The position numbers were made by a program, and so were the translations under genes. A DNA stretch of 64,000 bases from an uncultured Olsenella sp. (GTDB lineage Bacteria > Actinomycetota > Coriobacteriia > Coriobacteriales > Atopobiaceae), in contig CASEHX010000009.1 of assembly GCA_949287905.1 (NCBI GenBank), forward strand, positions 23,365-87,364. Direction: 5' to 3'. The notes beneath the pieces are model-generated. The model was given only the letters and a program-made list of their open reading frames with translations. It was not told the DNA's origin and did no database searches. Positions within the stretch are counted from its first letter, which is position 1; each line of letters opens with the position of its first letter. This document shows, piece after piece, positions 1 through 64,000 of this stretch.

Positions 1-605
1 GACAGCTCGCGAGAAACGCTTTCGAGCGAGCGATCGCGAAGCGAGAACAGGCTGGGCATGCCGCCAAAGCGGAGATAGTCCGCAAAGGCGACGTCCTCGG
101 GCTCCTCTGAGTCGAAGGCGCTGCAGAACGTGAGGTATTCCGCAAAGGAGAGGGGATGCACCATGACGCTGACCTGCCTGCCAGAAAGCTGCGTCGCCAG
201 GTCGGAGGAGAGGATGTGGGCGTTGGACCCGGTGATGTAGACGTCAGTACCGGGGCGCGTGTGAAGGCGCCTGACAACGCGCTCCCAGCCGTCGACCTCC
301 TGTATCTCGTCGAGGAATACGTAGGCCGTCGATTGGGCGTCTGCCGCCTCGAATGCAGCCTGGAGGTCCGCCATGAGCCCTTCTGCCGATTGCTCGAGCG
401 GGAGGTCAAACTCGTCGAAGCGCCGATAGAAGATGTTCTGGGGTGCGATGCCTTCGGCGAGAAGCTGGTCTCGAAAGGCGGCGAGAATGGTCGACTTGCC
501 ACATCGACGGATGCCTTGGAGTACCTTCACCTGCTCGGTCCCGCGAAGAGAGTCTAGGACGTCAAGGTAGTGCTGGCGATTGACGCGCTGGGGACTCGTG
601 CTCAT
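1..605 (-). CDS. AAA+ ATPase, AAA_14/DUF4143 family, N-terminal part (C-terminus lies beyond window start)
   Basis: Absent from the ORF track because it runs off the window. Reverse complement from ATG (603-605) with RBS GGAGG (610-614) reads MSTSPQRVNRQHYLDVLDSLRGTEQVKVLQGIRRCGKSTILAAF...VFLDEIQEV, showing Walker A and Walker B motifs. Confidence 0.8.
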   Translation of the reverse strand, partial: MSTSPQRVNRQHYLDVLDSLRGTEQVKVLQGIRRCGKSTILAAFRDQLLAEGIAPQNIFYRRFDEFDLPLEQSAEGLMADLQAAFEAADAQSTAYVFLDEIQEVDGWERVVRRLHTRPGTDVYITGSNAHILSSDLATQLSGRQVSVMVHPLSFAEYLTFCSAFDSEEPEDVAFADYLRFGGMPSLFSLRDRSLESVSREL

Positions 606-765
606 GGCGCCTCCTTAGGAAGAATAATTTCGAGTATACCCGAAACTACATCCATGAATTATTCGAGTTTCAGTCATACCTGAAAGAAACTGGGACGTCC
701 TGCCACTCATCAATGAGTTTCCGAATGCGAGGACGAGAAGTTCCGCCAGCGCGCGTGACGCTTCG

Positions 766-1257
766 CTACTCCGTCTCGGGACCCATGAGGCGTCGCTTGT
801 AGACGAACCTTACGGCCAGCAGCGCCGTGCACAGGAAGAGCAGCGTGCCCACCGCAGAGAGCATGGCCTCGCGGCCAACGAGGGCGGTTACGACCACGAT
901 GACGGCGGAGAGCGGCGGAATGAGGTGGATGAAGGTTCGGGCGACCTCGCGCGCTAGGTACGCCTCGAGCTCATCGTTCTCTGTAGCAAGAAGGGCGCGC
1001 AGCGCGGCGTCATCTGCGAGGGCGCTCCGGAGCTTGCGAATCTGCTTTACGGTGAAGCTCGCAGCAAAAGCGAGAAGCCCGATTAGGAAGCCCGCGACAA
1101 AGCTCGTGACGAAGTCGCTTCCCCCGGCGGGTAAGATGTTGGCTACGGCCATGACGACGATAATAACCATCGCGCCTAGGATGATGGCGAGCGAGACGCC
1201 CTCGCGGCGCAGGCGGCGATGGATGTCAGCGCGCAGGGCTTCGGCAGTCTTCTTCAT
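766..1257 (-). CDS. small polytopic membrane protein, partner of upstream XRE regulator
   Basis: ORF 766..1266. ATG at 1257 (MKKTAEAL...) lies 5 nt after the XRE stop. About 4 hydrophobic segments. No family recognised. Confidence 0.6.
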   Translation of the reverse strand: MKKTAEALRADIHRRLRREGVSLAIILGAMVIIVVMAVANILPAGGSDFVTSFVAGFLIGLLAFAASFTVKQIRKLRSALADDAALRALLATENDELEAYLAREVARTFIHLIPPLSAVIVVVTALVGREAMLSAVGTLLFLCTALLAVRFVYKRRLMGPETE

Positions 1258-1262
1258 GGCGA

Positions 1263-1472
1263 TCACAGCTCCTCGTCTATCTCGGAAAAGTCAAAGACGT
1301 CTTCGATTGCAAGGCCAAAGTAGCGGGCGATCTTGTAGGCGAGAGGCAGGGAGGCGGTGTACTTCTCGACCTCGATGGAGGTGATGGTCTGCCGCGTGGT
1401 GCCTACTGCCTCGGCGAGCTCGGCCTGACTCATCTTGCGCTCGCGGCGCAACTCGCGGATGCGCGTCCGCAT
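1263..1472 (-). CDS. XRE-family helix-turn-helix transcriptional regulator (about 69 aa)
   Basis: MRTRIRELRRERKMSQAELAEAVGTTRQTITSIEVEKYTASLPLAYKIARYFGLAIEDVFDF is a typical HTH_3 fold. The internal ATG at 1472 is preferred over the ORF-track start at 1553. Confidence 0.85.
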   Translation of the reverse strand: MRTRIRELRRERKMSQAELAEAVGTTRQTITSIEVEKYTASLPLAYKIARYFGLAIEDVFDFSEIDEEL

Positions 1473-1634
1473 GGCATCACCTTCCCTGCCTCGAACAGTC
1501 TTGCTAAGCATGCTTTGCAAATTAAGCATAGCATGCTTTGCATACAATGACAAGTACGCTTTGCAAGCAGCGTGTAAAGACCGGAGCGTGTTCCGAGCTG
1601 TCGGTCAGTGAGAGAAAAACCTGTCCCCTTTTAC

Positions 1635-2783
1635 TCAGCGGTTGCGCGCTATGCGCAGGTCGAGCTCGCGCAGGAAGCGCTCCTCGCCGTCGAAGGTGCG
1701 GGGGATGTCCAAGTGGTAGTCCTTCTCGCCGTGCGGGGTGGTGCCGTGGCCGTTGACCTTGATGCACCATCGGCCCAGCTCATAGCTGGTGACGCCGTCG
1801 AGGTCCCAGGTGCTCGTGCTCGCGAGCTCGCCCGAGCCCGAGGTGAGCGCGTAGGAGAGATGACCGCCCTCGAGCACGATGGTCTGCGTGAGGCTTGTGC
1901 CCGAGCGGTGCGCCCACCAGCCGGCGGCGACGGGCCAGGCAAAGATGCCCAGGCCGATCACGCCTGAGATTAGTCCTTGTATCAGCGGAAATGCGTCAAA
2001 GAACGCGAAGCGTGGCCCCTCGGGCACGAGCACGACCACGCCGAGTGTGGCAAGCCCAGCGGCGATCATGCCAAAAGTGACGTTGCGCGCAAAGGCTACA
2101 TAAGGACGACGCTTCTCCTCGTTTCGCGGGAACGCGATGGCGTCGCCGCGTTCGATGGCCTCGGCCGTGCTCGCATCGAGCGACCAACCTGCCAAGGTGC
2201 GCTTCTCACGACGTTCGCTCTTGACGCCGATAAGGAAGTGCGCGAGGTAGGCAATCGGCATTGCTATGCAGAAGACGGCGACGGTGCCAAGCGTCACCCA
2301 GCACATGGTGTCAAAGAGCGGCGTCCCCACGGACATAAAGACAGCGAGCAGCTCACAGCAGACGGCGAGAAAAACGGCCAGCACGGCGACGCGGGCGACG
2401 AGGGCGGCTCGGCGCGAGAGCCCGTAGGAGCGTCCTGCGCGCAGGCCGCGGTCTGCTGCGACGCCCTTGAGCATGGCGTCGCCAGCTGAGTCGCTCGATG
2501 TGATGCCGAGGATGATGAGCAGGTTGAAGAGGAGGCGCGCAGGCAAGGGAATCGCGACGGTGAGGCCGGCGCGGTAGTCGGCGAAGGACCGGACGATGTA
2601 GTAGACGCATGCGACGATGGGGTAGGCCGCCAGCGACAGCACGGCGAGAAGCATCGCGAGCTCGTGGCTGGGCGCGACGAAGGAGAGCGCGTTCAGTGCG
2701 ACGAACGTGAGCAGGTAGCCTGCCGCGTGGATGAGGACGTGCTTGGCGGCGTCCCGAAGCTCGCGCGCGTTCTTCTCGGCCAT
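1635..2783 (-). CDS. hypothetical polytopic membrane protein with soluble C-terminal domain
   Basis: ATG at 2783 preceded by GAGGAGG. MAEKNARELRDAAKHVL... is followed by multiple TM segments. The part of the ORF upstream of 2783 looks non-coding (Arg/Gly-rich). Confidence 0.6.
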   Translation of the reverse strand: MAEKNARELRDAAKHVLIHAAGYLLTFVALNALSFVAPSHELAMLLAVLSLAAYPIVACVYYIVRSFADYRAGLTVAIPLPARLLFNLLIILGITSSDSAGDAMLKGVAADRGLRAGRSYGLSRRAALVARVAVLAVFLAVCCELLAVFMSVGTPLFDTMCWVTLGTVAVFCIAMPIAYLAHFLIGVKSERREKRTLAGWSLDASTAEAIERGDAIAFPRNEEKRRPYVAFARNVTFGMIAAGLATLGVVVLVPEGPRFAFFDAFPLIQGLISGVIGLGIFAWPVAAGWWAHRSGTSLTQTIVLEGGHLSYALTSGSGELASTSTWDLDGVTSYELGRWCIKVNGHGTTPHGEKDYHLDIPRTFDGEERFLRELDLRIARNR

Positions 2784-3066
2784 GAAACCTCCTCGCTGTT
2801 GCCTCCAAGGTATCCCATCGCGCTCCGCGCCCGCGAAACCCTTACGGATCCCTGACGTGACAGGGGGACGGAGGCATTGTCGCCGCTCCGTCCCCCTGTC
2901 ATATTGGCGATAAGCCCCTCTACCTGCGGCGCGCAACCGGCGGGTGCCTCCCGGTTGCCTCAAAACCAGCCAAATTGCTTACCGTCGGTTGGTAGAATTG
3001 CTCCGTGCGCGCCCGCAGAATACAAGGTGCCGGCAGACAGCGCACACCCCCGACGAAGGGCAGACC

Positions 3067-4098
3067 ATGAGCTTTCGCGACAACCTCCAGCACCTGCGCG
3101 CAGAGCGCAACATGACCCAGGAGCAGCTGGCCATGCTGCTCGGCGTCTCCCGCCAGAGCGTAACCAAGTGGGAGGCAGAGAGGAGTCAGCCGGAGATGGA
3201 CAAGCTCCTCAAGATGTGCGAGATCTTCGACTGCACGCTTGACGAGCTCGTGACGGGCGACCTCACCGGCCGCGCCGCGCCCGCGACGGCCGCCCCCATC
3301 CCCGCCGGCCCGCCCACCGACGTCTGCGGCTACGAGGAGCACCAGCGCATGATGGCGCTCAAGGTCCCCACCGGCGTGGCGCTCATCCTCTTGGGCATCG
3401 CGCTTGGCCTGCTCTTCGAGGGCTCCGTCGAGCTGGCGTCCTGGAACGGGCGCGACGGCCTCTTCGTGATCATCGTGCTCGTGGGCATCCTCGCTGGCCT
3501 CGCGTTTCTCGTGCCCGCGGGCATGGAGCACACGGCGTTCCAGAAGGCGCACCCCTACGTGGAGGACTTCTACACCGACGAGGACCGCGCCGCGGCCCGT
3601 CGGCAGTTCTCGACGGCGCTCATCGCTGGCCTCGCGCTCATCTTCGCGGGCATCGGCTGCGTGCTCATGCTCGAGAAGACCGCGGAGAACTGGGGGCTCT
3701 TCCTGCTCATGCTCTTCATCGCTCTGGGCGTGTGGTGGATTGTGCGCGGCGGCATGCTGCTCGGGCGGGTCAACGTCGAGGAGTACAACCGCTCCGTCGG
3801 GGAGGACCTCGAGGTGGAGGACATCGTATCCGCAGAGCTGGACGAGGCGCAGCGCGAGGCTCTTCTCGCCCAGAAGCGACGTGGCAAGAAGCTCGGCGCC
3901 GTGTGCGGCGCCATCATGATCGTGGCCACGATTGTGGGCCTGGCGCTTCTCTTTGCGCCGGTGTTCTCGGCGCCAAATATGGACTCCTGGACCCCGGAGG
4001 GCACCTCGGCCATGTGGTTCTGGGTGGCCTGGCCGGTGGGTGGCCTCGTCTGCGGCATCGTGACGCTGCTCTGGGAGGCGTTCGACCGGGAGGGGTAG
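3067..4098 (+). CDS. membrane-anchored XRE-family HTH regulator
   Basis: MSFRDNLQHLRAERNMTQEQLAMLLGVSRQSVTKWEAERSQPEMDKLLKMCEIFDCTLDELVTGD, then several TM helices. ATG at 3067. Confidence 0.8.
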   Translation: MSFRDNLQHLRAERNMTQEQLAMLLGVSRQSVTKWEAERSQPEMDKLLKMCEIFDCTLDELVTGDLTGRAAPATAAPIPAGPPTDVCGYEEHQRMMALKVPTGVALILLGIALGLLFEGSVELASWNGRDGLFVIIVLVGILAGLAFLVPAGMEHTAFQKAHPYVEDFYTDEDRAAARRQFSTALIAGLALIFAGIGCVLMLEKTAENWGLFLLMLFIALGVWWIVRGGMLLGRVNVEEYNRSVGEDLEVEDIVSAELDEAQREALLAQKRRGKKLGAVCGAIMIVATIVGLALLFAPVFSAPNMDSWTPEGTSAMWFWVAWPVGGLVCGIVTLLWEAFDREG

Positions 4099-4155
4099 CG
4101 TCCCTTTGTCCTGTGCCTCTGCTACTATGTAGACACGTCTACAAAGGAGGCTCGC

Positions 4156-4858: not shown

Positions 4859-4866
4859 GAGACGCC

Positions 4867-5874: not shown

Positions 5875-5947
5875 CGCGGGGTGTCCCGCGCTATTCTGGC
5901 ATCTCGAAAGAATGGCATGCCGTTGAACGTCATTGGAAGTTCGGCGA

Positions 5948-7439: not shown

Positions 7440-8690
7440 GTGGCAAGCAACTCCTGGAAGCTCAAGCTCGCGTGCGTGTGGGGCGGCGAGCTGGTCTCGG
7501 TGCTCACGAGCTCCATTCTGCAGATGGGCTTTGTCTGGCACATCACGCTCACCACGAACTCGGCGAGCATGCTCTCGCTGGCGTCGCTCGCGGGCTTCCT
7601 GCCGCTCGCGCTCTTTGGTACCTTCGCGGGGACCATCGTCGACCGTCTGCCGCTCAAGACTACGCTCATCGGGGCGGACCTCTTCATCGCCACGGTGAGC
7701 GCCGTCGTGGCGGCAGTCTCGCTCACTGGTGTGCTTCCTGTGTGGGTGGTCATGGTCGCACTCTTCGTGCGGGCCATCGGCAGCTCTCTACACACGCCGG
7801 CCTTCCAGGCGCTTACGCCTCTCGTGGCGCCCGCCGAGCACCTCACACGCCTTGCGGGCGTGACGCAGGCCGTCCAGTCCGGCGGCTACATCCTCGGCAC
7901 GGCCGTCGCGGCGGTGATCTATCCGCTATGGGGCCTCACGGCTATGATCGCGCTGGATGTGGTGGGTGCGCTCTTCGCCACGGTGGCGGTGCTCGCGGCA
8001 AGGCTCGACGTGGGCGGCACCGGCCAAAACGCGGCGGCAGGCGAGAAGAACCTCGGCCTTGTGGCGCAGGCGCGCGCCCTGGCTGCCGAGACCGCCGACG
8101 GCTACCGCGTCCTGCGCGGCTACCGCGGCCTCTTCGCGCTTTTGTGGTGCGGCTTCGTCTTCACGCTGGTCTTCTCGCCCATATCGGCGCTCTTTCCGCT
8201 CATGACGCTCGACCACTTCGGCGGCACCACGGGTGACGCCGCCACGGCGGAGATCGTGTTCTCGGTGGGCATGATCGCGGGCTCAGCGTTGCTCACGGCA
8301 ACGGGCGGCTTCAGGAACCGCGCGCTCACGGTCTGCTTTGCCACGGCACTTTACGGATTTGCGACGCTGGTCGCGGGCTGCGCGGGGCCAAGCGCTGGCG
8401 GCATGCAGCTCTTCTTTGTGATGAGCTTCCTCATGGGACTGAGCTCGCCGTTCTACTCTGGACCGCAGACCGCCCTCATGCAGGAGAAGGTTCCGCCCGA
8501 GTACCTGGGGCGCGTCTTTGGCCTCTACGGCGCCATCATGTCCTGGGCGATGCCGCTTGGGCTGGCGTTCTCGTCGCTCTTCGCGGATGCCGTTGGCGCG
8601 CCGGCGTGGTTTGTCGGCGCCGGCGCCGCGATGATTCTTCTCGCCTGCGTGACCTGGGCAATCCCCGCCATCCGCCACATCGAGGAGTGA
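7440..8690 (+). CDS. MFS transporter (EntS/macrolide-efflux-like subfamily)
   Basis: GTG at 7440 after AGGAGGA. 12 predicted TM helices. WKLKLACVWGGELVSVLTSSILQMGFVWHI is a typical MFS_3 N-terminus. Confidence 0.85.
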   Translation: MASNSWKLKLACVWGGELVSVLTSSILQMGFVWHITLTTNSASMLSLASLAGFLPLALFGTFAGTIVDRLPLKTTLIGADLFIATVSAVVAAVSLTGVLPVWVVMVALFVRAIGSSLHTPAFQALTPLVAPAEHLTRLAGVTQAVQSGGYILGTAVAAVIYPLWGLTAMIALDVVGALFATVAVLAARLDVGGTGQNAAAGEKNLGLVAQARALAAETADGYRVLRGYRGLFALLWCGFVFTLVFSPISALFPLMTLDHFGGTTGDAATAEIVFSVGMIAGSALLTATGGFRNRALTVCFATALYGFATLVAGCAGPSAGGMQLFFVMSFLMGLSSPFYSGPQTALMQEKVPPEYLGRVFGLYGAIMSWAMPLGLAFSSLFADAVGAPAWFVGAGAAMILLACVTWAIPAIRHIEE

Positions 8691-9162: not shown

Positions 9163-9223
9163 GCGATGCTCCTCTCGTTTGTCAGATAATAGACCCGTCA
9201 AGCCGAGAAGAACGGAGCGCCGC

Positions 9224-9955: not shown

Positions 9956-9980
9956 CGAAATATCCGGAAAAAGATACTAG

Positions 9981-11763: not shown

Positions 11764-11773
11764 TGACGGAGCG

Positions 11774-12262
11774 CTACAGATCAACCACGCGGACGTCGTG
11801 GCAGTGCGCGCGCAGCAGCATGATCAGGTCCGTCGTGGCGAGAAGGACGGTTGCGGTGTTGTCGCAGGGGTGAACGGTCACCCGCCCGGCATCGACGAGC
11901 GCCTGGTCGAGCACGACCTCCACGTGCCGCTCGGCATCGTTCAGCGCGCCGAGCGGCGTGACGGCGCCCGGCACCAAGCCGAGCATCGCGCGCAGGTCCT
12001 GCTCGCTCGCAAACGAGAGTCGCCGCGACCCCAGGCTTTCCTGGATCTCTCGCAGCGAGACGTTCTTCTCGTCCGGAAGGCAGACGAGGTAGTACGCACG
12101 GTGCTTGTCGTCCCGCAGAAAGAGGTTCTTGGCGCCGAGCTCGCGATGGGGGATGCCCGCGGCCACAGCCTCCGCGACGGTGTAGACCGCCACGTGCTCG
12201 TAGAGCTCGTAGGCAATCCCCTCGTGGTCGAGCAACTCCAGCGTCTCGGCTTTTCCGTACAT
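11774..12262 (-). CDS. YbaK/ProX-type aminoacyl-tRNA deacylase (prolyl-tRNA synthetase-associated domain)
   Basis: 162 aa. ...GAKNLFLRDDKHRAYYLVCLPDEKNVSLREIQESLGSRRLSFASEQDLRAMLGLVPGAVTPLG. Confidence 0.85.
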   Translation of the reverse strand: MYGKAETLELLDHEGIAYELYEHVAVYTVAEAVAAGIPHRELGAKNLFLRDDKHRAYYLVCLPDEKNVSLREIQESLGSRRLSFASEQDLRAMLGLVPGAVTPLGALNDAERHVEVVLDQALVDAGRVTVHPCDNTATVLLATTDLIMLLRAHCHDVRVVDL

Positions 12263-18178: not shown

Positions 18179-18196
18179 AATCGAGGGGGAGAGGGC

Positions 18197-37742: not shown

Positions 37743-37755
37743 TGGGGGGTCGGAC

Positions 37756-44705: not shown

Positions 44706-46730
44706 ATGAGGCAGGCGGTCGTGGGGCTCTTGGCGCACGTCGACGCGGGCAAGACCACGCTCGCGGAGGCCATGCTCGCCGCCGCGGGGGCCATCCGCAA
44801 CCCCGGTCGCGTGGACAGCGGCAGCTCCCACCTGGACACCGATGCCATGGAGCGCGACCGCGGCATCACGATCTTCTCGTCCAGCGCGTCGCTTGACTGG
44901 GCGGGCGCCCGCGAGGAAAACGGCGCCCACCTCATGCTCGTTGACGCACCCGGCCACGTGGACTTCTCCGCGGAGGCGGAGCGGACGCTTGCCGCCCTCG
45001 ACTGCGCCATCCTGGTGGTGGGTGCAAACGACGGCGTGCAGGGCCATACCGAGACCCTGTGGGACCTGCTCGCACGCTACGAGGTGCCCACCTTCGTCTT
45101 TGTGAACAAGTGCGACCTGGAGAACCCGGGGCGAGAAGAACTTCTCGCCGAGCTGGCCTCGCGGCTCTCGCCGGGCTGCGTGGACGCATCCGCGCTGCTT
45201 GCGGGCGACATGGGTGCGCTGGAGGACGCAGCCTCGACGGACGATGCTGCGCTCGAGGAGTGCCTGGAGACCGGCGCGCTTGCGTCGGACACGCTGCGGC
45301 GTCTGGTGGCCGGCCGCGCGCTCTTCCCGGTCTTCTTTGGTGCCGCGCTGCGCGACGACGGCGTGTGCGAGCTGCTCGACGGCGTGTGCGCGCTTCTCGC
45401 CGAGCGCTCATGGCCGGAGGAGTTTGCGGCGCGCGTCTACCGCGTGAGCCGCGGTTCGCGCGGCGAGCGCCTTGCCTGGGTGAAGGTCACGGGCGGCACA
45501 CTGCGCGCGAAGACGCAGGTTGCGGGCGTGGACCGTCGCGGCGAGCCGTGGGCCGAGAAGGTCAACGAGGTGCGCCTCTACCAGGGCGCGAATTTTGAGA
45601 CCGTGGCAGAGGTGCCCGCCGGGCAAATCTGCGCCGTCACCGGGCTGAGCCACGTGGTGCCGGGAAGCGCCTTGGGCGCGGAGTCGCAAGCAGCGCGCCC
45701 GTTGCTCGCTCCCGTCCTGTCCTACCAGGTGATTCCCGAGCCCGGTGCGGACGTCTCCGCTCTTGTGCGGGCCCTGCGCGAGCTTGCCGACGAGGATCCC
45801 ATGCTCGGCGTCACGTGGCAGGAGCAGCTCCAGGAGGCGCACGTCCAGCTCATGGGCGAGGTCCAGCAAGACGTGGTCGCGGAGCTCCTGCTCGAGCGCT
45901 ACGGCTTTGCGGTGACCTTTGGGCCTGGCGGCATCCTCTACAAGGAGACCGTGACCGCACCCGCCGAGGGCGTGGGCCACTTTGAGCCGCTGCGCCACTA
46001 TGCCGAGGCGCGCCTCCTCGTGGAGCCGCTGCCGCGCGGAACCGGCGTGGAGTTTGGCACGCGCTGCTCCACGGACGACCTCGACCTCAACTGGCAGCGC
46101 CTCATCCTCACCAACGCCATGGAGCGTGACCACCTGGGCGCGCTCACGGGCGCGCCGCTCACGAACGTACGCATCACGCTGCTCGCCGGCCGCGCGCACG
46201 CCAAGCACACCGAGGGCGGCGACTTCCGCCAGGCCACGTACCGTGCCGTTCGCCAGGCGCTCATGGGCGCGCGCGAGCGTGGCGAGTGCCAGCTCCTGGA
46301 GCCGTGGTACCGCTTTCGCCTGACGGTGCCTGTCGACCGCGTGGGTCGCGCGCTCACCGACCTCACGCGCATGGCGGCGGAGTTCGAGGCGCCGGCGACG
46401 TCGGGCGACGCGGCAACCATCACGGGCGAGGTGCCGGCCTACGAGGTGGGGGAGTACGCGCTCGAGGTCGCGCGCTACACGGGCGGGCGCGGGCGCCTCT
46501 CGCTCGAGCTCGCGGGCCACCTGCCGTGCCACAACGCCGACGAGGTCATCGCCGCTGCGGCCTACGACCCCGAGGCCGATCTTCCCAACACGCCCGACTC
46601 CGTCTTCTACAGCCACGGCGCAGGTCACACGGTGAAGTGGTATGACGTGCCCGAGCACGCTCACACCGTCGCGGATCCCGCGCGTCTGCGCCCGTATCGC
46701 CCCGCGGACGCCGCGTTCTTCTCGGCGTGA
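44706..46730 (+). CDS. translation-factor GTPase of the TetM/TetO ribosomal-protection-like (EF-G-like) family
   Basis: MRQAVVGLLAHVDAGKTTLAEAML...DTDAMERDRGITI...LVDAPGHVDF...FVNKCDL carries G1-G4 motifs with TetM-like spacing. 674 aa. Confidence 0.85.
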   Translation: MRQAVVGLLAHVDAGKTTLAEAMLAAAGAIRNPGRVDSGSSHLDTDAMERDRGITIFSSSASLDWAGAREENGAHLMLVDAPGHVDFSAEAERTLAALDCAILVVGANDGVQGHTETLWDLLARYEVPTFVFVNKCDLENPGREELLAELASRLSPGCVDASALLAGDMGALEDAASTDDAALEECLETGALASDTLRRLVAGRALFPVFFGAALRDDGVCELLDGVCALLAERSWPEEFAARVYRVSRGSRGERLAWVKVTGGTLRAKTQVAGVDRRGEPWAEKVNEVRLYQGANFETVAEVPAGQICAVTGLSHVVPGSALGAESQAARPLLAPVLSYQVIPEPGADVSALVRALRELADEDPMLGVTWQEQLQEAHVQLMGEVQQDVVAELLLERYGFAVTFGPGGILYKETVTAPAEGVGHFEPLRHYAEARLLVEPLPRGTGVEFGTRCSTDDLDLNWQRLILTNAMERDHLGALTGAPLTNVRITLLAGRAHAKHTEGGDFRQATYRAVRQALMGARERGECQLLEPWYRFRLTVPVDRVGRALTDLTRMAAEFEAPATSGDAATITGEVPAYEVGEYALEVARYTGGRGRLSLELAGHLPCHNADEVIAAAAYDPEADLPNTPDSVFYSHGAGHTVKWYDVPEHAHTVADPARLRPYRPADAAFFSA

Positions 46731-49104: not shown

Positions 49105-51888
49105 ATGCCGAAGACCATGCTTATCCATCACATCAAGAATATAACCATAAAGGGCAACAGGAACGCCGGGGACGCACTGCGCGACCGTGGCGAGAAGAGC
49201 GCGGTCGCTCGTCGCGGCGAGCTGGGCTCCGCCCTCGAACATGCCGCCTGCGCCGAGAAGCGCGATCTTCTCGCCAGCCTCGGCAGCTCGGTAGATGGAA
49301 TCACCTCTGCCGAGGCCGCGCGTCGCCTTGAGCAGAACGGCCCCAACTCGCCAACCGAGCGCCGTCGCCTGCCGCTCGCGCTGCGCCTCGCGGTGAGCTT
49401 TGTGAGCCCCTTCACGCTCATCCTCGCAGCGCTCGCCGCCGTCTCGCTCTACACCAACGTCATCCTCGCCGCTCCGGGTGACGAGGACCCCTCTACCTGC
49501 GTCATCATCGCGGTGATGGTTGCCATCTCGGGGGTGCTGCGCTTTGTGCAGGAGGACCGGGGCCTGGCCGCGGCGGAGTCTCTTCGCAAGCTGGTGACCA
49601 CCACGTGCTGCGTGGAGCGGGCGGGGGAGCCCGAGCGCGAGGTGCCCTTCTCGGAGCTCGTCGTGGGTGACGTCGTGCGCCTCGCCGCGGGCGACCTCGT
49701 GCCCGCGGACGCCCGCGTCATCGAGGCAAAGGACCTCTTCCTCAACCAGGCGGCGCTCACCGGAGAGAGCGAGCCCGTAGAGAAGACCGCCGACCCGCGC
49801 CCCGCTGCCGCGAACGGCAGCGTGCTCACCGTGGGCGACTGCGGAAACATCGTCTTCACCGGCACGAGCGTGGTCTCGGGGTCCGCGCGCGCCGTCGTGG
49901 TCGCAACCGGCGACGACACGTACGTGGGGCGCGTCATGGGCGCCTGCCGGGAGCGCCCCGCCCAGACGAGCTTTGACGCCGGCGTTGCCTCGGTCTCCCG
50001 CGTGCTCGTTGCGTTCATGCTGGTGATGTGCCCCGTCGTGTTTGTGCTCAACGGCCTCACTAAGGGCGACCGGCTCTCCGCGCTGCTCTTCTCGGTGTCC
50101 GTTGCCGTGGGCATCACGCCGCAGATGCTTCCCGTGATCGTGACCACCTGCCTCGCCCGGGGCGCGCGCGAGATGGCCCGGCACGAGGTCATCGTCAAGG
50201 ACCTCGCCGCCATCCAGAACCTGGGCGCCATGGACGTGCTGTGCTGCGACAAGACGGGCACGCTCACCGAGGACCGCGTGATCCTCGAGCGGCACATCAA
50301 CGTGGAGGGGCACCCGGACGACCGCATCCTGCTCCACGCGTATCTCGTGAGCCATTTCCAGACGGGCCTGCGCAACCTCATCGACGAGGCGATCATCGGG
50401 CGCTACGAGAGCCTTGCCGAGAAGGACCGTGAGCTCGCGGGCGTTGCCTCGCCCTACCGCAGGGTCGACGAGGTCCCCTTTGACTTCGAGCGCCGCCGCA
50501 TGAGCGTGGTGATCGAGGACGAGCGGGGAAAGTCGCAGATGGTGACCAAGGGCGCCGTGAGGGAGGTGCTTGCCGCGTGCTCGCACGTGGAGCTTGCCGA
50601 GGGGGTGCGCCCGCTTGACGGCAGGCTGCGCGCCCGGCTGCTCGCGCGTGCCGAGGACCTTGGGGAGCGCGGGATGCGCACCATCGCCGTGGCGCAGAAG
50701 GCCGACCCGCGCCCCGTGGGCGCCTTTGGCCCGGAGGACGAGCGCGACATGGTGTTCATGGGCTACCTTGCGTTTCTCGACCCGCCCAAGCAGAGCGCCG
50801 CGGGGGCCATCGAGCGCCTCACGAAGGCGGGCGTCTCGGTGCGCGTGGTGACGGGGGACGCCGAGGGGGTCGCGGCATGCGTGTGCCGTACGGTGGGCAT
50901 TCGCGTGGAGGGCGTGCTTCTGGGGCCCGAGGTCGACGCGCTCGACGATGCCGCGCTCGCCGTCCGTGCGGAGGAGACCCAGCTCTTCGCGCGCCTCTCG
51001 CCGCTTCAGAAGGCGCGCGTGGTGAGGGCGCTCAGGGCCGCCGGCCACGTGGTGGGGTTCATGGGCGACGGCATCAACGACGCGGCTGCCATGCGCGCCG
51101 CGGACGTGGGCGTCTCCGTGGACACCGCGGTAGACGTTGCCAAGGAGAGCGCGCAGGTCATCCTCACGCGCAAGGACCTCTCGGTGCTCGTGCGCGGGGT
51201 GCGCGAGGGCCGGCGCACGTACGCAAACACGATCAAGTACATAAAGGCGACGGCGAGCTCCAACTTTGGCAACGTGCTCTCGGTGCTTGTCGCCAGCGCG
51301 TTCCTGCCGTTTCTGCCCATGTCGGCGCTGCAGCTCCTGCTGCTGGGGCTGGCGTACACGGTCGCCTGCGCCGCGCTTCCGTGGGACAACGTGGACGAGG
51401 CGTTTCTCGCCGGCCCGCGCACCTGGGACGCGCGGTCCATCGTTCGCTTCATGCTGTGGATGGGGCCGCTGAGCTCGGTGTTTGATCTCGTGACGTACGC
51501 GGCGATGTTCTTTGTGGTGGCACCGACGGCGGCGGGCGGACCATGGGACACGCTGGGGCCTGCCGCGGCTGCGGCGTTTGTGGCCGTCTTTCACACGGGG
51601 TGGTTCGTCGAGTCCATGTGGACGCAGACGCTCGTCCTGTTTGCGCTGCGCGGCGAGCGGGTTCTTTCTCCGAAGGGTCGCCCGGCGCGGGCGCTCGCGG
51701 CCGTTGCGGTCCTTGGCGTTGCGGCGCTGACGGCGCTGCCCTGGATCCCGGGCATGTCCGAAGCCCTGGGCCTCGCGCCGCTGCCCGCCGCCTTCTGGCC
51801 GCTGCTCGTCACCTGCGCCGTGGGCTACCTGCTGCTCGTCGGCCTGATGAAGCGGCTCTACGTGCGGCGGTTTGGCTCGCTTCTCTAG
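49105..51888 (+). CDS. mgtA: magnesium-translocating P-type ATPase
   Basis: 927 aa. CCDKTGTLT (phosphorylation site), MTGDAxxxxA-type VTGDAEGVA, and GDGINDAAAMRAADVGVSV. MgtA-type N-terminus and 10 TM helices. RBS GGGAGG. Confidence 0.9.
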   Translation: MPKTMLIHHIKNITIKGNRNAGDALRDRGEKSAVARRGELGSALEHAACAEKRDLLASLGSSVDGITSAEAARRLEQNGPNSPTERRRLPLALRLAVSFVSPFTLILAALAAVSLYTNVILAAPGDEDPSTCVIIAVMVAISGVLRFVQEDRGLAAAESLRKLVTTTCCVERAGEPEREVPFSELVVGDVVRLAAGDLVPADARVIEAKDLFLNQAALTGESEPVEKTADPRPAAANGSVLTVGDCGNIVFTGTSVVSGSARAVVVATGDDTYVGRVMGACRERPAQTSFDAGVASVSRVLVAFMLVMCPVVFVLNGLTKGDRLSALLFSVSVAVGITPQMLPVIVTTCLARGAREMARHEVIVKDLAAIQNLGAMDVLCCDKTGTLTEDRVILERHINVEGHPDDRILLHAYLVSHFQTGLRNLIDEAIIGRYESLAEKDRELAGVASPYRRVDEVPFDFERRRMSVVIEDERGKSQMVTKGAVREVLAACSHVELAEGVRPLDGRLRARLLARAEDLGERGMRTIAVAQKADPRPVGAFGPEDERDMVFMGYLAFLDPPKQSAAGAIERLTKAGVSVRVVTGDAEGVAACVCRTVGIRVEGVLLGPEVDALDDAALAVRAEETQLFARLSPLQKARVVRALRAAGHVVGFMGDGINDAAAMRAADVGVSVDTAVDVAKESAQVILTRKDLSVLVRGVREGRRTYANTIKYIKATASSNFGNVLSVLVASAFLPFLPMSALQLLLLGLAYTVACAALPWDNVDEAFLAGPRTWDARSIVRFMLWMGPLSSVFDLVTYAAMFFVVAPTAAGGPWDTLGPAAAAAFVAVFHTGWFVESMWTQTLVLFALRGERVLSPKGRPARALAAVAVLGVAALTALPWIPGMSEALGLAPLPAAFWPLLVTCAVGYLLLVGLMKRLYVRRFGSLL

Positions 51889-59972: not shown

Positions 59973-62900
59973 CTACTTCTCCCGGCTGATGATGATCGCC
60001 CCGCCGAGTAGCGCCAGGCCAAATATCAGGCTGGCGAGAAGGGCGCTCAGCTCGCTGGCCGGATCGCCGGTGCTGGGGAGCATGTCCTCGTCTTCTCTGT
60101 CGGCCGTATCAGAAGGCGACTTTCCCTCGTCCGACGGCTGGTCGGAGGTGCCGCTGTGGTCCCGGTCGGGTGTTGGGTCTGGCTCTGGATTGGGCGCGGG
60201 CTCCGGATCAGGCTCCGGCTCCGGATCAGGCGTCGGTTCCGGGTTAGGTTCGGGCGTGGGCTCCGGATCCGGTGTCGGTTCCGGCTCCGGGTCGGGCGTG
60301 GGGTCCACCACGGGAGGCTCGTCCGCGTCATCGGGCAAGACGAGCGCGCCGTTGTTGCCCAGTCGTGCCGAGAGACGCACCGCACCCTCGCCCGTCTCGG
60401 AGAGTGCGAGCTGGTCCACGTACGGCGCGCTGCCCGTGGCGTTGGGGTCCTTCTCGCTCGATCCCAGGGCGACGGGTCGCACATAGCGCGGCGTGCCCGC
60501 GAGCGCCACGCACTGTCCGTCCCGCACGTCAAATCGAAGGGGGATCTCGCTCGCGTCAAGGGCCACCGTGTAGGGCTCCATGCTCTTCTCGACCTCGGCC
60601 GGCGCGTCGTTCTCCGCCGAGGAGACGTCCGCAGTGTAGACGGTCTGCTCAAAGTAGTAGGTCTGGCCGCTCTGGGGAAGCGTCGTGAGCGGGGCGTAGC
60701 CACTCGACGTGCGCGAGAAGAGCGGCGTGTCGCGCGAGAACGCGTAGTAGGAGTTGGTCTGCGCCGCCCAGGCAGACGCCACGGCTCCCGCGGCGGCGTC
60801 GGTGCCCGTGCCGGTGAAGGCGCTCGCAAAGACCGCCCGCGCTCCCGAGGGCACGTGCTGCACGTCCGCGCCGAGCGCCTCCCCAAGCTCCTCGTCGCTC
60901 ACCTCCTCGCCGGCATCGACGCGCTCGAGCACGGCCTCGGTGTCCGGCGTGGGCGAGACAAGATACGCAAAGCGCAGCGGCTTGACGTCCGTATCGCCGT
61001 CAAGCGCCAGCGTGGCCGAGCCATCCTCTGCCACGGTCACGCTCGTGCGGCGCGCGGGAACGGCGTCCACGGGCACCGAGAGCAAAAGCGTCTGTCGCCC
61101 GGTGGTAAGGCTCGTCTCCACCATGACCGCAAAGTCGTAGAGCGTGACGTCGCCGCCGGTGTACTGGTTGGGCAGGTTCCCGATGTAGTAGTACGTCTCG
61201 CAGACGGCGGTGGCGCCCGCGGCCTGCGCGGCCTCGATCTTCTTGCGCACGTCCTCGGGCGCCCGCTCCTGCCAGCGCCCGTCCGCGGCGGCGTCCACCT
61301 CGGCCTGCGTGGCAAAGGCGAAGGGCTCGCCGTCCATCGGGATCATCTCGTGCGCGTCGTTCACGTACCAGGAGGCGTGGTTGGAGAAGGCCCCGGGACC
61401 GGAGTAGGAGAACTGGCCGTCCTGCAAGGCGTCGTAGAAGAGGTCATAGACGGCATACCCGAGGTTATAGCGTGAGTTCATGGCCTCCACGAGGTAGCCG
61501 AACTCGTGCGTGGCCTCCACGTGGCCGGGGTCCTCGAGGCTGATCTTCACGGCCTGTGCGGCCAGCTCTCCGTCGAGCAGCGTGTCCCCGTAGACGATGC
61601 CGCTCACGCGCGCGACCTCCATGCCGGCGCCTATCTCGTCGGACACGGTGACGCGGCTGCCTCCGGGGCGGTCGTCGCCGGGGCCGCCCGACGCCGGCGC
61701 CGTGTAGACCACGCCGAGCGAGCGGTCCACCACGGTGCCAAAGGCCCACGAGAGCGCGGTCGCGCTTCGGGCGGAGAGGTAGTCGTCGACGGGCGTGACC
61801 TCGTAGCCGTCGGCGGCGCTGAGCAGGCCCGGCGCGCAGGGGAAGGTGACGTCCTCGGCCACGAGGCCGCTCGGGCCGGAGCCAAAGAGGTGCAGCGTGA
61901 CGTCCTTCTCGCCCGCCACGGAGGCCTCGGCGAACGTCCGCGCTGCCGTAGAGAGGTTGTCCCGCAGGTCCGTGCCGGCCGCCGCGCCGGTGCCGGGCAG
62001 AGGGTGGTGCGCCTGCTCGTGGGCGGTCTCCAGCAGATAGGCGGCTGTCTCGCTCGTGTCCAGGCCGCAGGTGAAGAACGTGAGCGGCCGCTCGGCGCCC
62101 CATGCGGCGCCCACGCGCGCGGCCTCGTTTCTCATCGTGAGCAGCGTGGCGAGAAGTGCGTCCGTACCGTAGCCGTTCTCTCGGCTTCCCGGCAGCGGGC
62201 CCAGAAAGCCCGTGCCGTCGCCGGTGTAGACGGGCGGGTTCGTGAAGTTGGTGCTCGCCATCGGCGGGGTCTCTCGGCCCATGAGGCAGAGCACGGGGAC
62301 GCGGCCCGCCGAGCCGGGGTCGTCTGCGGCACCCGCCAGCACGTCGCCCGCCACGTGCGTGGCAAGCTGCAGGTAGGACCCGCTGCCGAGGCGCGCTGAG
62401 GCCGTCCTGCCCGCGCCGTCGGTGGCCGTGGCGGTCACGGAGAGCGTGCCGCCGTCGTACGCGAAGTAGTTGCCGTTTCCGTCCGGCTCGTAGGTGCCGA
62501 GCGGCATGAGCGTCGTGACCTTGGAGTCGTAGCCGATCACGGCCACGCGCGTGGGGGCGGCGCCGTCACCGTTTTCCGCCATGAGGCGCGCGACCGCCTG
62601 GTTGAGGGCGTCGACGAGGTAATCCGCCTGAGGCCGGCCGCCGTAGGTGATGTCCTCGAGGAGCCGGTTGGTGCTCACCACGAAGACCACGTCGTGTGCC
62701 GGTCCGCCCTCCTGACGCACGGAGACGGCCGAGGCCAGCGTGGAGAGACCCACGATGAAGCTGTGGTCGTCCGCGTCTATCTTCACGGGCAGGCCGGCGG
62801 CGCGCGCGTCGTCGGCACTGGCATAGACGGACTTGTCGGCCCAGATGCGCCCGGCGTTCTCCGTGGAGACGGTGCCGGAGCCCGTGCCAAAGACCTCCTC

Positions 62901-63041
62901 CCAGCGGGCGGAGGTGTCGGGGTCAACGAGCTTGCTCACCCCGGCGGTTTCCGCGCGCGCGGAGGGCGCGGCGGCCAGCGCAACGACGGCTGCGGCAAAC
63001 AGGGCGAGAAGTGCGTGCGTGAGCGTGCGGCGTCGAGACAT
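59973..63041 (-). CDS. LPXTG-anchored large surface protein with Pro-rich stalk and possible VWA-like domain
   Basis: ATG 63041. Signal peptide MSRRRTLTHALLALFAAAVVALAAAPSARA. C-terminal LPSTG plus hydrophobic segment plus REK. PEPEPTPDPEPTPEPNPEPTPDPEPEPDPEP stalk (about 60150-60300). DVVFVVSTNRL...VAVIGYDSKV is reminiscent of a VWA/MIDAS region but is degenerate. Confidence 0.85.
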   Translation of the reverse strand: MSRRRTLTHALLALFAAAVVALAAAPSARAETAGVSKLVDPDTSARWEEVFGTGSGTVSTENAGRIWADKSVYASADDARAAGLPVKIDADDHSFIVGLSTLASAVSVRQEGGPAHDVVFVVSTNRLLEDITYGGRPQADYLVDALNQAVARLMAENGDGAAPTRVAVIGYDSKVTTLMPLGTYEPDGNGNYFAYDGGTLSVTATATDGAGRTASARLGSGSYLQLATHVAGDVLAGAADDPGSAGRVPVLCLMGRETPPMASTNFTNPPVYTGDGTGFLGPLPGSRENGYGTDALLATLLTMRNEAARVGAAWGAERPLTFFTCGLDTSETAAYLLETAHEQAHHPLPGTGAAAGTDLRDNLSTAARTFAEASVAGEKDVTLHLFGSGPSGLVAEDVTFPCAPGLLSAADGYEVTPVDDYLSARSATALSWAFGTVVDRSLGVVYTAPASGGPGDDRPGGSRVTVSDEIGAGMEVARVSGIVYGDTLLDGELAAQAVKISLEDPGHVEATHEFGYLVEAMNSRYNLGYAVYDLFYDALQDGQFSYSGPGAFSNHASWYVNDAHEMIPMDGEPFAFATQAEVDAAADGRWQERAPEDVRKKIEAAQAAGATAVCETYYYIGNLPNQYTGGDVTLYDFAVMVETSLTTGRQTLLLSVPVDAVPARRTSVTVAEDGSATLALDGDTDVKPLRFAYLVSPTPDTEAVLERVDAGEEVSDEELGEALGADVQHVPSGARAVFASAFTGTGTDAAAGAVASAWAAQTNSYYAFSRDTPLFSRTSSGYAPLTTLPQSGQTYYFEQTVYTADVSSAENDAPAEVEKSMEPYTVALDASEIPLRFDVRDGQCVALAGTPRYVRPVALGSSEKDPNATGSAPYVDQLALSETGEGAVRLSARLGNNGALVLPDDADEPPVVDPTPDPEPEPTPDPEPTPEPNPEPTPDPEPEPDPEPAPNPEPDPTPDRDHSGTSDQPSDEGKSPSDTADREDEDMLPSTGDPASELSALLASLIFGLALLGGAIIISREK

Positions 63042-63209
63042 GATGCTCCGATTCTGAGACGGGAACGGGAAACAAATGACCCCTGTATACCCGCATTTCT
63101 CGCTTGTCCGCGTACGTTCGACGCGAGTGACACCAAAGCCGCGCATGCCTGACGCCTTGCTGAGCGGCGGCTCGACGCAACCTTGCGGCTGCCGGCCCTT
63201 CTCGCCGTG

Positions 63210-63305
63210 CCCGGCTCCTTGCCTGGCTCCGCCCGACCCCCTTGCCCGGTCTCTCGCCCGGCCCCCTTGCCCGGCCCCCGCTCTGCCCCCTTGCCCGGCC
63301 CCCGC
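63210..63305. repeat. short tandem repeat, CCCCCTTGCCCGG about every 24-25 nt
   Basis: Copies at 63237, 63262 and 63286, with a degenerate copy upstream. The region is intergenic, upstream of the LPXTG gene. Confidence 0.7.
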
Positions 63306-63308
63306 CCG

Positions 63309-63436
63309 AACTCTGACTTTTGCACGAGCGCATCCGTCCTGCAGATGATTAGAACATACATACTCGCAGGTATAAGCATTGCTCACCTTCGAACCGCTGT
63401 TGAGAAGCCCTTTTCGCTCGTGCAAAAGTCAGAGTT
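63309..63436 (-). mobile_element. MITE-like element family M2, copy C (inverted relative to A/B)
   Basis: Perfect 22-bp terminal inverted repeats, aactctgacttttgcacgagcg and cgctcgtgcaaaagtcagagtt. The internal ...ttctaatcatc... block matches copy B in reverse orientation. Confidence 0.6.
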
Positions 63437-63686
63437 GGCGCAAGGGGGCTGCGTGACGGTGGGTCGGACGGCGGCGGGAGCCGGCGGGCCCGGTGAGCCG
63501 GCCGCATGCTACACTGGTACCAACCACATACCGAGGGCACGGCTCTTGCAGCTGCTACGTCATGTTGAAAACGGCTCCGGTTTGACTCCGGATCAGCACA
63601 CGGCTGTGCCAGGGACGGCGGGGGACGCCCGCTGGCCCCGCCTTGCCCTCCCGACACCCGGACACCCGGGAGGAAGCGAGGCACCC

Positions 63687-64000
63687 ATGTCTCAGAACAA
63701 CGCCAGATCTGCCGAGAAGAGCCTCTTCGTGCGCATCGCTGCCTGCGCGGCGGCGCTCGTGCTCGCGCTGACCGTCGCTGCGTGCGGCGGCGCGCCGGCG
63801 ACGTCCGGCGGCGACAACCCCGCTGACACCGGCCAGGAGCAGCAGGCCACGATCGAGGTCACCGTGGAGATCGACGCGACGGCAGGTGAGGGCGAGAAGA
63901 CCACGGCGGAGGTCGAGCTCCCCGAGGGCGCCACGGCCTACGACGCGCTCGTTGCCGCCGCCGACGACGTCAACGCCTCGGACTCCGAGTACGGCATGTA
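63687..64000 (+). CDS. lipoprotein, DUF4430-like (N-terminal part; continues beyond the window)
   Basis: Not in the ORF track (no stop in window). ATG 63687 after GGGAGGAAG. MSQNNARSAEKSLFVRIAACAAALVLALTVAACGG (lipobox), then ATIEVTVEIDATAGEGEKTTAEVELPEGATAYDALVAAADDVNASDSEYGM. Confidence 0.65.
   Translation, partial: MSQNNARSAEKSLFVRIAACAAALVLALTVAACGGAPATSGGDNPADTGQEQQATIEVTVEIDATAGEGEKTTAEVELPEGATAYDALVAAADDVNASDSEYGM

Follow-up and report, generated by a model that had tools for sequence, protein, structure and literature searches.

A candidate uptake-signal-like DNA word at two copies per kilobase in a gut actinobacterium of the Atopobiaceae

Introduction

To our knowledge, sequence-specific DNA uptake is known from two proteobacterial families only. 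The DUS of the Neisseriaceae, a 10-12-mer (AT-GCCGTCTGAA) with dialects, is read by the minor pilin ComP, and the USS of the Pasteurellaceae has a 9-mer core, AAGTGCGGT or ACAAGCGGT. Other abundant words have been described from other systems. The KOPS/SRS sequences (GGGNAGGG, GAGAAGGG and GAAGAAG) orient FtsK/SpoIIIE, have an extreme replichore-dependent skew and occur about once per 5-10 kb. Chi sites, used by RecBCD/AddAB, are short, over-represented, species-specific and found within genes, and they are co-oriented with replication, with about 75-85% on one strand. HIP1, the highly iterated palindrome GCGATCGC of cyanobacteria, is linked to a methyltransferase site and its function is putative.

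The word discussed here was found in a window of 64,000 nucleotides, the whole stretch of DNA that was analysed, which is part of a metagenome scaffold from a Thermophilibacter/Olsenella-like gut actinobacterium of the Atopobiaceae; the first-pass annotation had guessed its actinobacterial affiliation correctly. Like DUS, the word is non-palindromic, 10-12 bp long, strand-symmetric and lineage-specific, occurs about 1-2 times per kb, has one-base dialects and uses a limited set of reading frames within genes. The published density and genome share of DUS/USS (about 2%) are matched by the word. However, its sequence is unrelated to DUS and its host is a Gram-positive member of the Actinomycetota. 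About half of the DUS/USS (DUES) copies are located in terminators, whereas 13% of the copies of the word are intergenic. Both USS and the word are mainly genic with few permissive frames, fall in poorly conserved protein segments (for the word, a site in an EF-G-like gene), and have a sharp core, weaker flanks and a spacing slightly more even than random. Unlike USS, the word has no AT-rich helically phased flanks, its density is about two-fold higher, and its core has two loosely specified positions followed by a final invariant C. The B. subtilis SRS is nearly identical to the purine-rich core GAGAAG(G) of the word and the AAGAAG dialect differs little from the L. lactis KOPS, but the word is unskewed and at least 10 times denser. 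HIP1 and the word are both hyper-abundant 8-mers (about 1 per kb), intragenic and lineage-specific, and both distort codon and amino-acid usage. The word is asymmetric, so a HIP1-type iterated palindrome was rejected. Chi, similar to the word in length, over-representation, species specificity and location within genes, differs in being strand-skewed and far sparser.

Sequence and abundance of the word

The duplex DNA word GGCGAGAAGRAC has 10-12 bases and occurs at about 2 per kb on both strands, with the consensus G[G/C]CGAGAAG[R][R]C around a strict core, CGAGAAGNNC.

1..64000, 64 on + and 64 on -: copies of CGAGAAGNNC in the whole window, n = 128, 2.0 per kb, about 2% of the DNA

The 8-mer GCGAGAAG is contained in 77 of the 128 copies, and 49 fit the full G[GC]CGAGAAG[AG][AG]C. 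An exact census gave 43 copies of GCGAGAAG on the + strand and 34 of its reverse complement, CTTCTCGC, on the - strand, the same figures as the manual tally of the first-pass annotation. GGCGAGAAG/CTTCTCGCC is present 61 times and CGAGAAG/CTTCTCG 137 times, and the word ranks first among both the 8-mers and the 9-mers of the window. The largest gap from one CGAGAAG to the next is 1756 nt, and extrapolation gives a genome total of about 4,000-5,000 copies.

The earlier description of the motif was right in its abundance but not in its length. CGAGAAG is followed by NNC in 93% of copies in the clade vs 58% in control genomes, and thus the word extends beyond the motif first described, to 10-12 bases around CGAGAAGNNC. 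Beyond positions -3 to +8 the information content is about 0, and one-mismatch variants of the core are not enriched, so that the specificity is sharp. The flank logo is identical for sense, antisense and intergenic copies. Dispersed repeats of the REP/MITE kind are excluded because no sequence is conserved beyond the core and 87% of copies are in genes. Copies are spaced a little more regularly than at random (CV 0.85-0.90), with a CV in the window of 0.85 vs 0.99 for random placement. The longest forms of the word are as follows.

11837..11849, + strand: full 13-mer GGCGAGAAGGACG, in the sense frame Gly-Glu-Lys-Asp
19740, 33479, 41036, 43390 and 52540 on +; 16159, 44503 and 61901 on -: further copies of GGCGAGAAGGACG
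8039..8055, + strand: 17-mer AGGCGAGAAGAACCTCG, an AAC variant of the word, also at 19202 and 34765

The three positions of AGGCGAGAAGAACCTCG had been given correctly, as had all those of GGCGAGAAGGACG on the + strand except 11847, for which the correct start is 11837.

Excess over null models and effect on coding sequence

The hyper-abundance proposed from the first reading was compared with codon-aware null models and is borne out. Permuting codons within genes gives 6.2±2.5 expected copies of the 8-mer vs 77 observed (12-fold, z=29), and with this null the excess is 27-fold for the 9-mer and 12-fold for CGAGAAGNNC. Markov models of order 0 and order 3 expect 2.4 and 16.1 copies of the 8-mer, respectively. 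A synonymous-only shuffle expects 36.5±3.6 copies (2.1-fold); this null is conservative because the peptides created by the word are retained in it. Relative to 603 kb from related genomes with similar G+C, the 8-mer and 9-mer are in 7- to 13-fold excess, and the excess of the two commonest 12-mers is about 33-fold (123 vs 3) and unbounded (86 vs 0).

Restricted reading frames had also been noted, and 59 of the 67 genic copies of the 8-mer in the window fall in a single codon phase. The sense frame nGC-GAG-AAG accounts for 29 copies and the antisense frame CTT-CTC-GCn (Leu-Leu-Ala) for 30; the remainder are antisense TTC-TCG (6), other frames (2) and intergenic (10).

3862..3869, - strand: example of antisense CTT-CTC-GCn (Leu-Leu-Ala) with the disfavoured CTT codon, one of 30 such copies in the window

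The word imposes the rare codons CTT, CGA and GAA. Leu-Leu-Ala is encoded by CTTCTCGCN in 34% of cases in the clade, whereas codon usage predicts 5.6% and control genomes have 3.4%. The tripeptide GEK occurs at 7.5 per 10,000 residues, vs 1.5 in controls and a range of 0.3-2.7 among its permutations, and the dipeptide EK is at 29.5 vs KE at 8.2.

Does the word merely reflect codon usage or amino-acid composition, or does it stem from a repeated gene family or dispersed repeat element? GGC, GAG and AAG are preferred codons, and the synonymous-only shuffle does reproduce 36.5 of the 77 copies. However, the codon-permutation null expects just 6.2, antisense copies use the disfavoured CTT six times above expectation, and GEK is 3-25 times above its permutations. 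The word is missing from control genomes that share this G+C and codon usage, and the intergenic logo is identical. The first reading placed the copies in unrelated genes, and they are indeed spread over dozens of unrelated Pfam families with flanks that are not conserved. The permutation null, the codon and tripeptide data and the logo comparison refute such an origin, and its probability is negligible. The equal density in coding and non-coding DNA, the shared logo, the rare codons and the inflated GEK point to a force at the level of DNA. The word overrides codon choice and even protein sequence, copies arise through point substitutions wherever coding permits, and they are favoured so strongly that rare codons become fixed and amino acids change. 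We know of no such signature other than the Neisseria and Haemophilus DNA-uptake signals.

Strand symmetry and genomic distribution

The near-equal orientation reported for the window was found again on a larger scale. Strand counts are 68:69 in the window and 520:582 (47:53) across the orthologous loci of 28 related genomes, with a per-locus chi-square against 50:50 of 23.3 for 28 degrees of freedom. The symmetry holds relative to replication strand and to gene direction alike, and none of the sub-variants of the word is skewed. The GC-skew sign is mostly constant and the window appears to sit on a single replichore. The weak skew had been taken to disfavour polar signals of the Chi or KOPS type; with no strand polarity, Chi, KOPS and SRS signals are now excluded, since these require a leading-strand share of at least 75%. 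A Chi-like recombination hotspot for AddAB/RecBCD/AdnAB would account for a word that is short, over-represented, lineage-specific, G-rich and inside genes. The word lacks co-orientation with replication, however, and its density is 5-10 times above that of known Chi sites. Such a hotspot is therefore highly improbable.

Copies had been described from unrelated genes as well as from intergenic DNA, and both locations are substantiated: non-coding DNA makes up 13.2% of the window and carries 13.3% of the copies. DUS are depleted from recently acquired DNA such as prophages and islands. For the word, density is uniform over all gene classes and equal in syntenic and non-syntenic genes (1.65-1.84 per kb). 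Six low-GC3 genes have 0.52 per kb vs about 1.7, in a sample of just 3.9 kb. A search for phage of the clade identified none. Enrichment in intergenic inverted-repeat terminators was not found in the window, which has one intergenic inverted pair only. The gene-end hairpins of the genome belong to a different repeat family.

The uniform density over gene classes and the slightly even spacing would also suit a dense array of sites at which a chromosomal DNA-binding protein binds or loads, with selection acting on chromosome function and not on uptake. The reader could be a nucleoid-associated protein, or the gamma-like domain of a translocase of the FtsK/SpoIIIE/TraB type. The SpoIIIE sequence GAGAAGGG and the L. 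lactis KOPS GAAGAAG (PMC3384302) are similar to the core GAGAAGG, and the latter is similar to the dialect GGCAAGAAG as well. However, KOPS/SRS need strong skew and the word is unskewed at every level, we know of no nucleoid protein with an exact 10-12-bp target that occurs within genes at 2 per kb, and selection at each of thousands of sites must be strong enough to alter amino acids. This explanation is unlikely.

The equal enrichment on all resident DNA, genic or intergenic and syntenic or non-syntenic, also fits generation of the word within the cell by sequence-specific modification and repair, as has been proposed for the HIP1 palindrome. A CGAGAAG methyltransferase and a very-short-patch-type mismatch nuclease would turn near-matches into matches. 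The shape of the word, 7 bp + NN + 1 bp, is like that of asymmetric Type IIG/III-like sites. Against this, no non-palindromic 10-12-mer is known to be driven in this way. The deamination neighbours are not clearly depleted: the clade:control ratio of TGAGAAG-/CAAGAAG-type variants is about 0.4-0.9, from small counts and with control counts inflated by the dialect GGCAAGAAG. We consider this route distinctly unlikely.

Related genomes and dialects

A search of related genomes had been proposed, and the word was found in 28 of them at 1.4-2.4 per kb. Loci with similar G+C from Collinsella, Enorma, Bifidobacterium and Clostridia lack it. One-base variants, or dialects, are present in other Atopobiaceae-like loci.

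GCCGAGAAG: dialect of loci L016, L059, L060 and L063
CGAGAAGCTC: dialect of loci L035 and L037
GGCAAGAAG: dialect of the O. uli group, loci L040, L042 and L049

The enriched lineages do not form a monophyletic group in a tree built from a single gene. A mobile system not involved in uptake could also account for this, and the patchy distribution would fit a mobile R-M-like module of the modification and repair kind.

A possible uptake signal

The word may be an uptake-signal-like word for self-recognition that is maintained by molecular drive, functionally analogous to DUS in Neisseria and USS in the Pasteurellaceae. By analogy with these systems we favour this explanation tentatively, at a little short of an even chance. 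A DNA-import pathway would contain a component that binds DNA sequence-specifically, with the word as its recognition site. Competent cells would preferentially import fragments bearing the word and recombine them into the chromosome; new copies would spread because such fragments are preferentially taken up and recombined, and the word would mark 'self' DNA. One-base shifts in receptor specificity may have given rise to the dialects of sister lineages. The first-pass annotation had already pointed to uptake-signal hallmarks. Density, symmetry and reading frames hold more strongly than it stated, and lineage-specific dialects and reshaped protein sequence are further hallmarks. Intergenic terminator pairs are not among them, and the lack of intergenic or terminator enrichment counts against the analogy.

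No competence, pilus or candidate receptor genes were found in about 78 kb of the scaffold or in the syntenic block of the relatives. The literature searched does not document natural transformation in Coriobacteriia and holds no earlier report of the word. ComEC-domain proteins are present in about 89% of Actinobacteria strains (PMC6299819).

Individual sites

Three close inverted pairs are located where they were first placed; a single copy in the EF-G-like gene is listed after them.

45131..45148: head-to-head pair GCGAGAAGAACTTCTCGC in the EF-G-like gene, read as CGA-GAA-GAA-CTT-CTC-GCC (R-E-E-L-L-A) with rare codons
42007..42025: inverted pair CTTCTCGCcaaGCGAGAAG between CorA-like and SdpI-like genes, the sole intergenic inverted pair of the window
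49253..49274: head-to-head pair CCGAGAAGcgcgatCTTCTCGCC in a P-type ATPase gene, conserved in L004, L007 and L010
45393..45400, - strand: CTT-CTC-GCC (Leu-Leu-Ala) copy in the EF-G-like gene

Among 28 clade orthologues each arm of the GCGAGAAGAACTTCTCGC pair occurs in 21, compared with 0 of 14 from Collinsella/Enorma. The EF-G-like site falls within an indel-rich segment. In place of the copy at 45393..45400, other clade species have GCC-GAG-AAG-GAC on the + strand three codons downstream, which shows independent gains on alternative strands in neighbouring codons.

Several copies lie just upstream of genes, in the Shine-Dalgarno position.

9204..9213, + strand: intergenic copy that precedes a start codon by 14 nt
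48634 (+), 53197 (+), 35375-35384 (-) and 48532-48541 (-): copies in the same arrangement

In the clade as a whole, the word is most often separated from the start codon by a spacer of 10-11 nt.

Counts, placement and reading frames

An exact census of the 64,000 bases, with a G+C content of 66.3%, agrees with the tally of the first-pass annotation, as the 8-mer GCGAGAAG occurs 43 times on the + strand and CTTCTCGC 34 times on the - strand. There are 61 copies of the 9-mer GGCGAGAAG/CTTCTCGCC and 137 copies of the 7-mer CGAGAAG/CTTCTCG, and the word's 8-mer and 9-mer top all others of their length in the window. The three inverted pairs lie where that annotation had placed them, as do its extended copies except one, which starts at 11837 and not at 11847. 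The strict core CGAGAAGNNC has 64 copies on each strand (2.0 per kb), which together cover about 2% of the DNA.

The window belongs to scaffold_223 (100.5 kb) of the ENA metagenome assembly ERZ16268148. A self-trained codon model placed 66 genes on 87% of the window, and for about twenty of these genes the calls agree with public-collection calls for the same scaffold. Of the window, 13.2% is non-coding, and 13.3% of the word copies fall in this share. No gene class is free of the word, toxin-antitoxin and nuclease genes included. The longest gap between copies is 1.76 kb and the spacing is a little more regular than random (CV 0.85-0.90). Restricted reading frames had also been claimed for the 8-mer, rightly: 59 of the 67 genic copies share one codon phase.

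Reading frames of the 77 copies of the 8-mer in the window
nGC-GAG-AAG, sense (x-Glu-Lys): 29 copies
CTT-CTC-GCn, antisense (Leu-Leu-Ala): 30 copies
TTC-TCG, antisense: 6 copies
Other frames: 2 copies
Intergenic: 10 copies

The motif-rich clade (28 Thermophilibacter/Olsenella-like Atopobiaceae), sampled at 165,597 codons, shows that the word has left an imprint on protein sequence. The tripeptide GEK is found 7.5 times per 10,000 residues in the clade and 1.5 times in the controls, which are loci of similar G+C from Collinsella, Enorma and other Coriobacteriales; the five permutations of GEK reach only 0.3-2.7 in the clade. The dipeptide EK stands at 29.5 versus 8.2 for KE, where composition predicts 11.3. 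Similarly, CTTCTCGCN encodes 34% of the Leu-Leu-Ala of the clade, compared with 5.6% predicted from codon usage and 3.4% in the controls.

The 77 copies of the 8-mer compare with 2.4 expected from a Markov model of order 0 and 16.1 from one of order 3. Codon permutation within each gene, which preserves codon usage and amino-acid composition, gives 6.2 ± 2.5 copies, a 12-fold excess (z = 29); under the same null the excess is 27-fold for the 9-mer and 12-fold for CGAGAAGNNC. A synonymous-only shuffle that preserves all peptides gives 36.5 ± 3.6 copies and a 2.1-fold excess. The first-pass annotation had set its limit for refutation at about three-fold, which is far exceeded under codon permutation but not reached under the synonymous-only shuffle. 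The latter null is circular because the peptides that it preserves already bear the imprint seen in the GEK, EK and Leu-Leu-Ala figures. Codon or amino-acid bias as the cause of the word is ruled out by the codon permutation, the tripeptide asymmetry and the control genomes.

Anatomy of the word and its distribution among relatives

A logo built from 1,408 GAGAAG sites of the clade has the consensus G-[G/C]-C-G-A-G-A-A-G-[A/G]-[A/G]-C, with information at -3 to +8 and none in the flanks outside these positions. The same logo is obtained for intergenic, antisense and sense copies. CGAGAAG is followed by NNC in 93% of the clade copies versus 58% in the controls. One-mismatch variants of the core were tested and were not enriched. 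The unconserved flanks and the diversity of the host genes rule out a REP, a MITE or a gene-family repeat.

Relatives with 84-93% protein identity in the EF-G-like gene (around 45131..45400 of the window) include Thermophilibacter provencensis, T. gallinarum and T. mediterraneus, isolates labelled Olsenella sp. An270, An290 and An293, and Atopobiaceae MAGs from chicken and other guts. The density of CGAGAAG is 1.95 per kb in the 28 clade loci (564 kb), 0.51 per kb in the control loci of equal G+C (Collinsella, Enorma and other Coriobacteriales; 31 loci, 603 kb), and at most 0.3 per kb in loci of Bifidobacterium and Clostridia. Two 12-mers, GGCGAGAAGGAC (123 in the clade versus 3 in the controls) and GGCGAGAAGAAC (86 versus 0), are nearly diagnostic for the clade. 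Sister lineages carry one-base variants of the word.

Dialects of the word in loci of related genomes (L numbers)
GCCGAGAAG: L016; L059, L060 and L063
CGAGAAGCTC: L035 and L037
GGCAAGAAG(GGC): Olsenella uli type-strain group, L040, L042 and L049; strand-symmetric, 0.35-0.5 per kb

Neighbour-joining on the EF-G-like protein recovers the main clade as monophyletic and places the other enriched lineages among poor ones, although a tree of one gene carries little information on species history. A different 8-mer, TGGACGAG(G), is weakly enriched in Collinsella tanakaei YIT 12063 (L041) and a Collinsella MAG (L045), with 12-13 copies of TGGACGAG per 22 kb versus 1.3 expected (Markov order 3). It is strand-skewed in both (9:3 and 9:4) and could serve the C. 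tanakaei lineage as a polar word of the Chi or KOPS type.

Comparison of the EF-G-like genes indicates how copies are gained. The segment CGA-GAA-GAA-CTT-CTC-GCC, two head-to-head copies written in rare codons, is present in 21 of the 28 clade species, while in Collinsella the same segment is variable, indel-rich and without any copy. A second site reads CTT-CTC-GCC-GAG-CGC in some species, which places a copy on the - strand, and CTC-ATC-GCC-GAG-AAG-GAC in others, which places one on the + strand three codons off. These comparisons show that copies arise repeatedly through point changes on either strand, beyond plain inheritance.

Strand symmetry and RNA-level readings

The strand ratio of the word is 68:69 in the window, with 8-kb bins that span 6:15 to 15:6, and 520:582 in the clade, where the loci show no heterogeneity. 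None of the word's sub-variants was skewed, and GC skew keeps one sign over most of the window. The GAGAAGG core is similar to the SpoIIIE-orienting SRS GAGAAGGG and to the lactococcal KOPS GAAGAAG. Chi and KOPS/SRS are nevertheless ruled out by the lack of strand polarity in the window, the clade and the sub-variants. An array of binding sites for a chromosomal protein or translocase is kept as an unlikely alternative explanation of the word.

An RNA-level signal such as a Shine-Dalgarno sequence, a pause or a terminator is ruled out as a general cause by the balance of sense and antisense copies, which is 42% to 58% for the hexamer GAGAAG in the clade and about equal for the 8-mer in the window. 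Searches of the window for Rfam families and tRNAs found none. Some intergenic copies lie about 8-14 nt upstream of start codons (9204, 48634 and 53197 on the + strand; 35375-35384 and 48532-48541 on the - strand), and in the clade the spacer between word and start codon peaks at 10-11 nt. In such copies the AAGGA within the word may double as a ribosome-binding site; we read the start-proximal copies as one more permissive location. The analysis establishes a word with a defined anatomy and a force behind it that acts at the level of DNA.

A possible role in DNA uptake

Sequence-specific DNA uptake is accepted in two proteobacterial families only, and a 2025 survey lists uptake sequences for Neisseriaceae and Pasteurellaceae alone. 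The present word shares with them a sharp asymmetric 10-12-bp sequence that fills about 2% of the genome with strand symmetry, a spacing slightly more even than random, permissive frames with a peptide imprint, recurrent gain of copies and lineage-specific dialects. The uptake-type reading is favoured because this set of features matches their published signature, and from it we infer a link between the word and uptake. The word would be a self-DNA recognition site read by part of a DNA-import pathway, and molecular drive would amplify its copies; this is offered as a tentative but serious candidate. Three points weigh against it. About half of the known uptake sequences are located in terminators, whereas the present word is not concentrated there; foreign DNA gives no more than a hint of depletion; and a Gram-positive precedent is lacking. 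A methylation-and-repair drive within the cell, as proposed for HIP1, is also kept as a quite improbable alternative.

Full-text literature searches for the word itself found nothing, nor did searches for Olsenella or Coriobacteriia with uptake sequences or ComEC, or for uptake sequences in Actinobacteria or outside the two known families. The word is best described as one that saturates the genome in the manner of an uptake signal, found in a new phylum and with a putative uptake function. With more reserve, Thermophilibacter and related Atopobiaceae may have a system for sequence-specific DNA uptake or self-recognition that would be the first outside Proteobacteria, and also the first of any Gram-positive phylum, with its own 10-12-bp word, dialects and receptor. 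Words that saturate a genome and are strand-symmetric are the trace that sequence-specific DNA uptake leaves behind. If the reading is true, these genetically intractable gut anaerobes would be naturally transformable by motif-tagged DNA, an undiscovered DNA receptor and natural competence would be expected in a group without genetic tools, and uptake-sequence theories based on molecular drive could be set against those based on selection in a third, independent case. Should the word turn out not to signal uptake, a new explanation is still needed for a sequence that occurs twice per kb and rewrites proteins. As a k-mer, the word offers a simple means of binning these genomes and of detecting foreign DNA in them.

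Foreign DNA

There are only faint signs that foreign DNA is poorer in the word. Low-GC3 genes have 0.52 copies per kb, a value from only 3.9 kb of sequence, and non-syntenic genes were as rich in the word as syntenic ones. In about 600 kb of clade DNA only one motif-free gap exceeds 2.8 kb (2408-6527 of the related locus L022), and it holds ordinary metabolic genes and no mobile element. Scans of a viral collection with the 14-mer GGCGAGAAGGACGC and of metagenomes with GGGCGAGAAGGACG each returned 120 contigs, mostly unrelated environmental ones with a low background word density and a control-like NNC fraction. Clade phages sought through a homologue of the YhcG nuclease were not found. The window has two YhcG/DUF1016 PDDEXK-nuclease paralogues (4867-5874 and 10207-11253; G+C 58-59%, lower), which adjoin RelB/PIN and HTH genes. 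Their word density, 1.0 and 1.9 per kb versus a window mean of 2.1, is near normal despite the lower G+C, which suggests that they are long resident in the genome.

Other repeats in the window

Gene ends in the window are occupied by a hairpin family and not by the CGAGAAG word. The perfect members have 10-14-bp stems and a conserved inner AAGGG(G)-AC/TC-W-G-W-(C)CCCTT, as in ATGATTCAAAAGGGGTCTGTCCCCTTTTGAATCAT. They are found at gene 3' ends, where the TGA stop codon often starts the hairpin, and resemble REP elements or terminators without a U-tract. Analogous words, GTCCCCAATT/AATTGGGGAC, are present in the related loci L015, L018, L019 and L024.

Hairpin family in the window
13825-13859, perfect hairpin
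29097-29125, perfect hairpin
34030-34064, perfect hairpin
37713-37743, perfect hairpin
40944-40976, perfect hairpin
42948-42970, perfect hairpin
Near 7385, 9842, 31941, 38877 and 44662, imperfect copies

An imperfect palindrome of about 30 nt, GTGACAA(T/A)GGGGTCGTAGCC(A/G)ASTGTCAC (families D7 and D8), forms tandem pairs in two intergenic regions (18112-18183 and 27401-27477), with a fifth, partial copy at 22834. These elements may be operator sites of one shared regulator. A 78-nt repeat of 87% identity with an internal palindrome, CAATTCGAGACGC..GTGTCTCGAATTG, is located upstream of the YhcG-like nuclease gene at 10207-11253 (9881-9958) and at the start of an S10-peptidase-like ORF (11689-11766). 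An intergenic duplication of 215 nt (24716-24930 and 26574-26788, 71% identity) flanks the gene pair 25056-26569 and contains 19-nt tandem units similar to CGACGGTTGTGCGCAC (families D2 and D6; 24675-24755 and 26571-26613). The 1022-residue protein encoded at 59973-63041 on the - strand gave only a weak sub-threshold match to Trypan_PARP; it has Gly/Ser/Pro-rich 18/24-nt tandem repeats at 60160-60321 and is probably a cell-surface protein.
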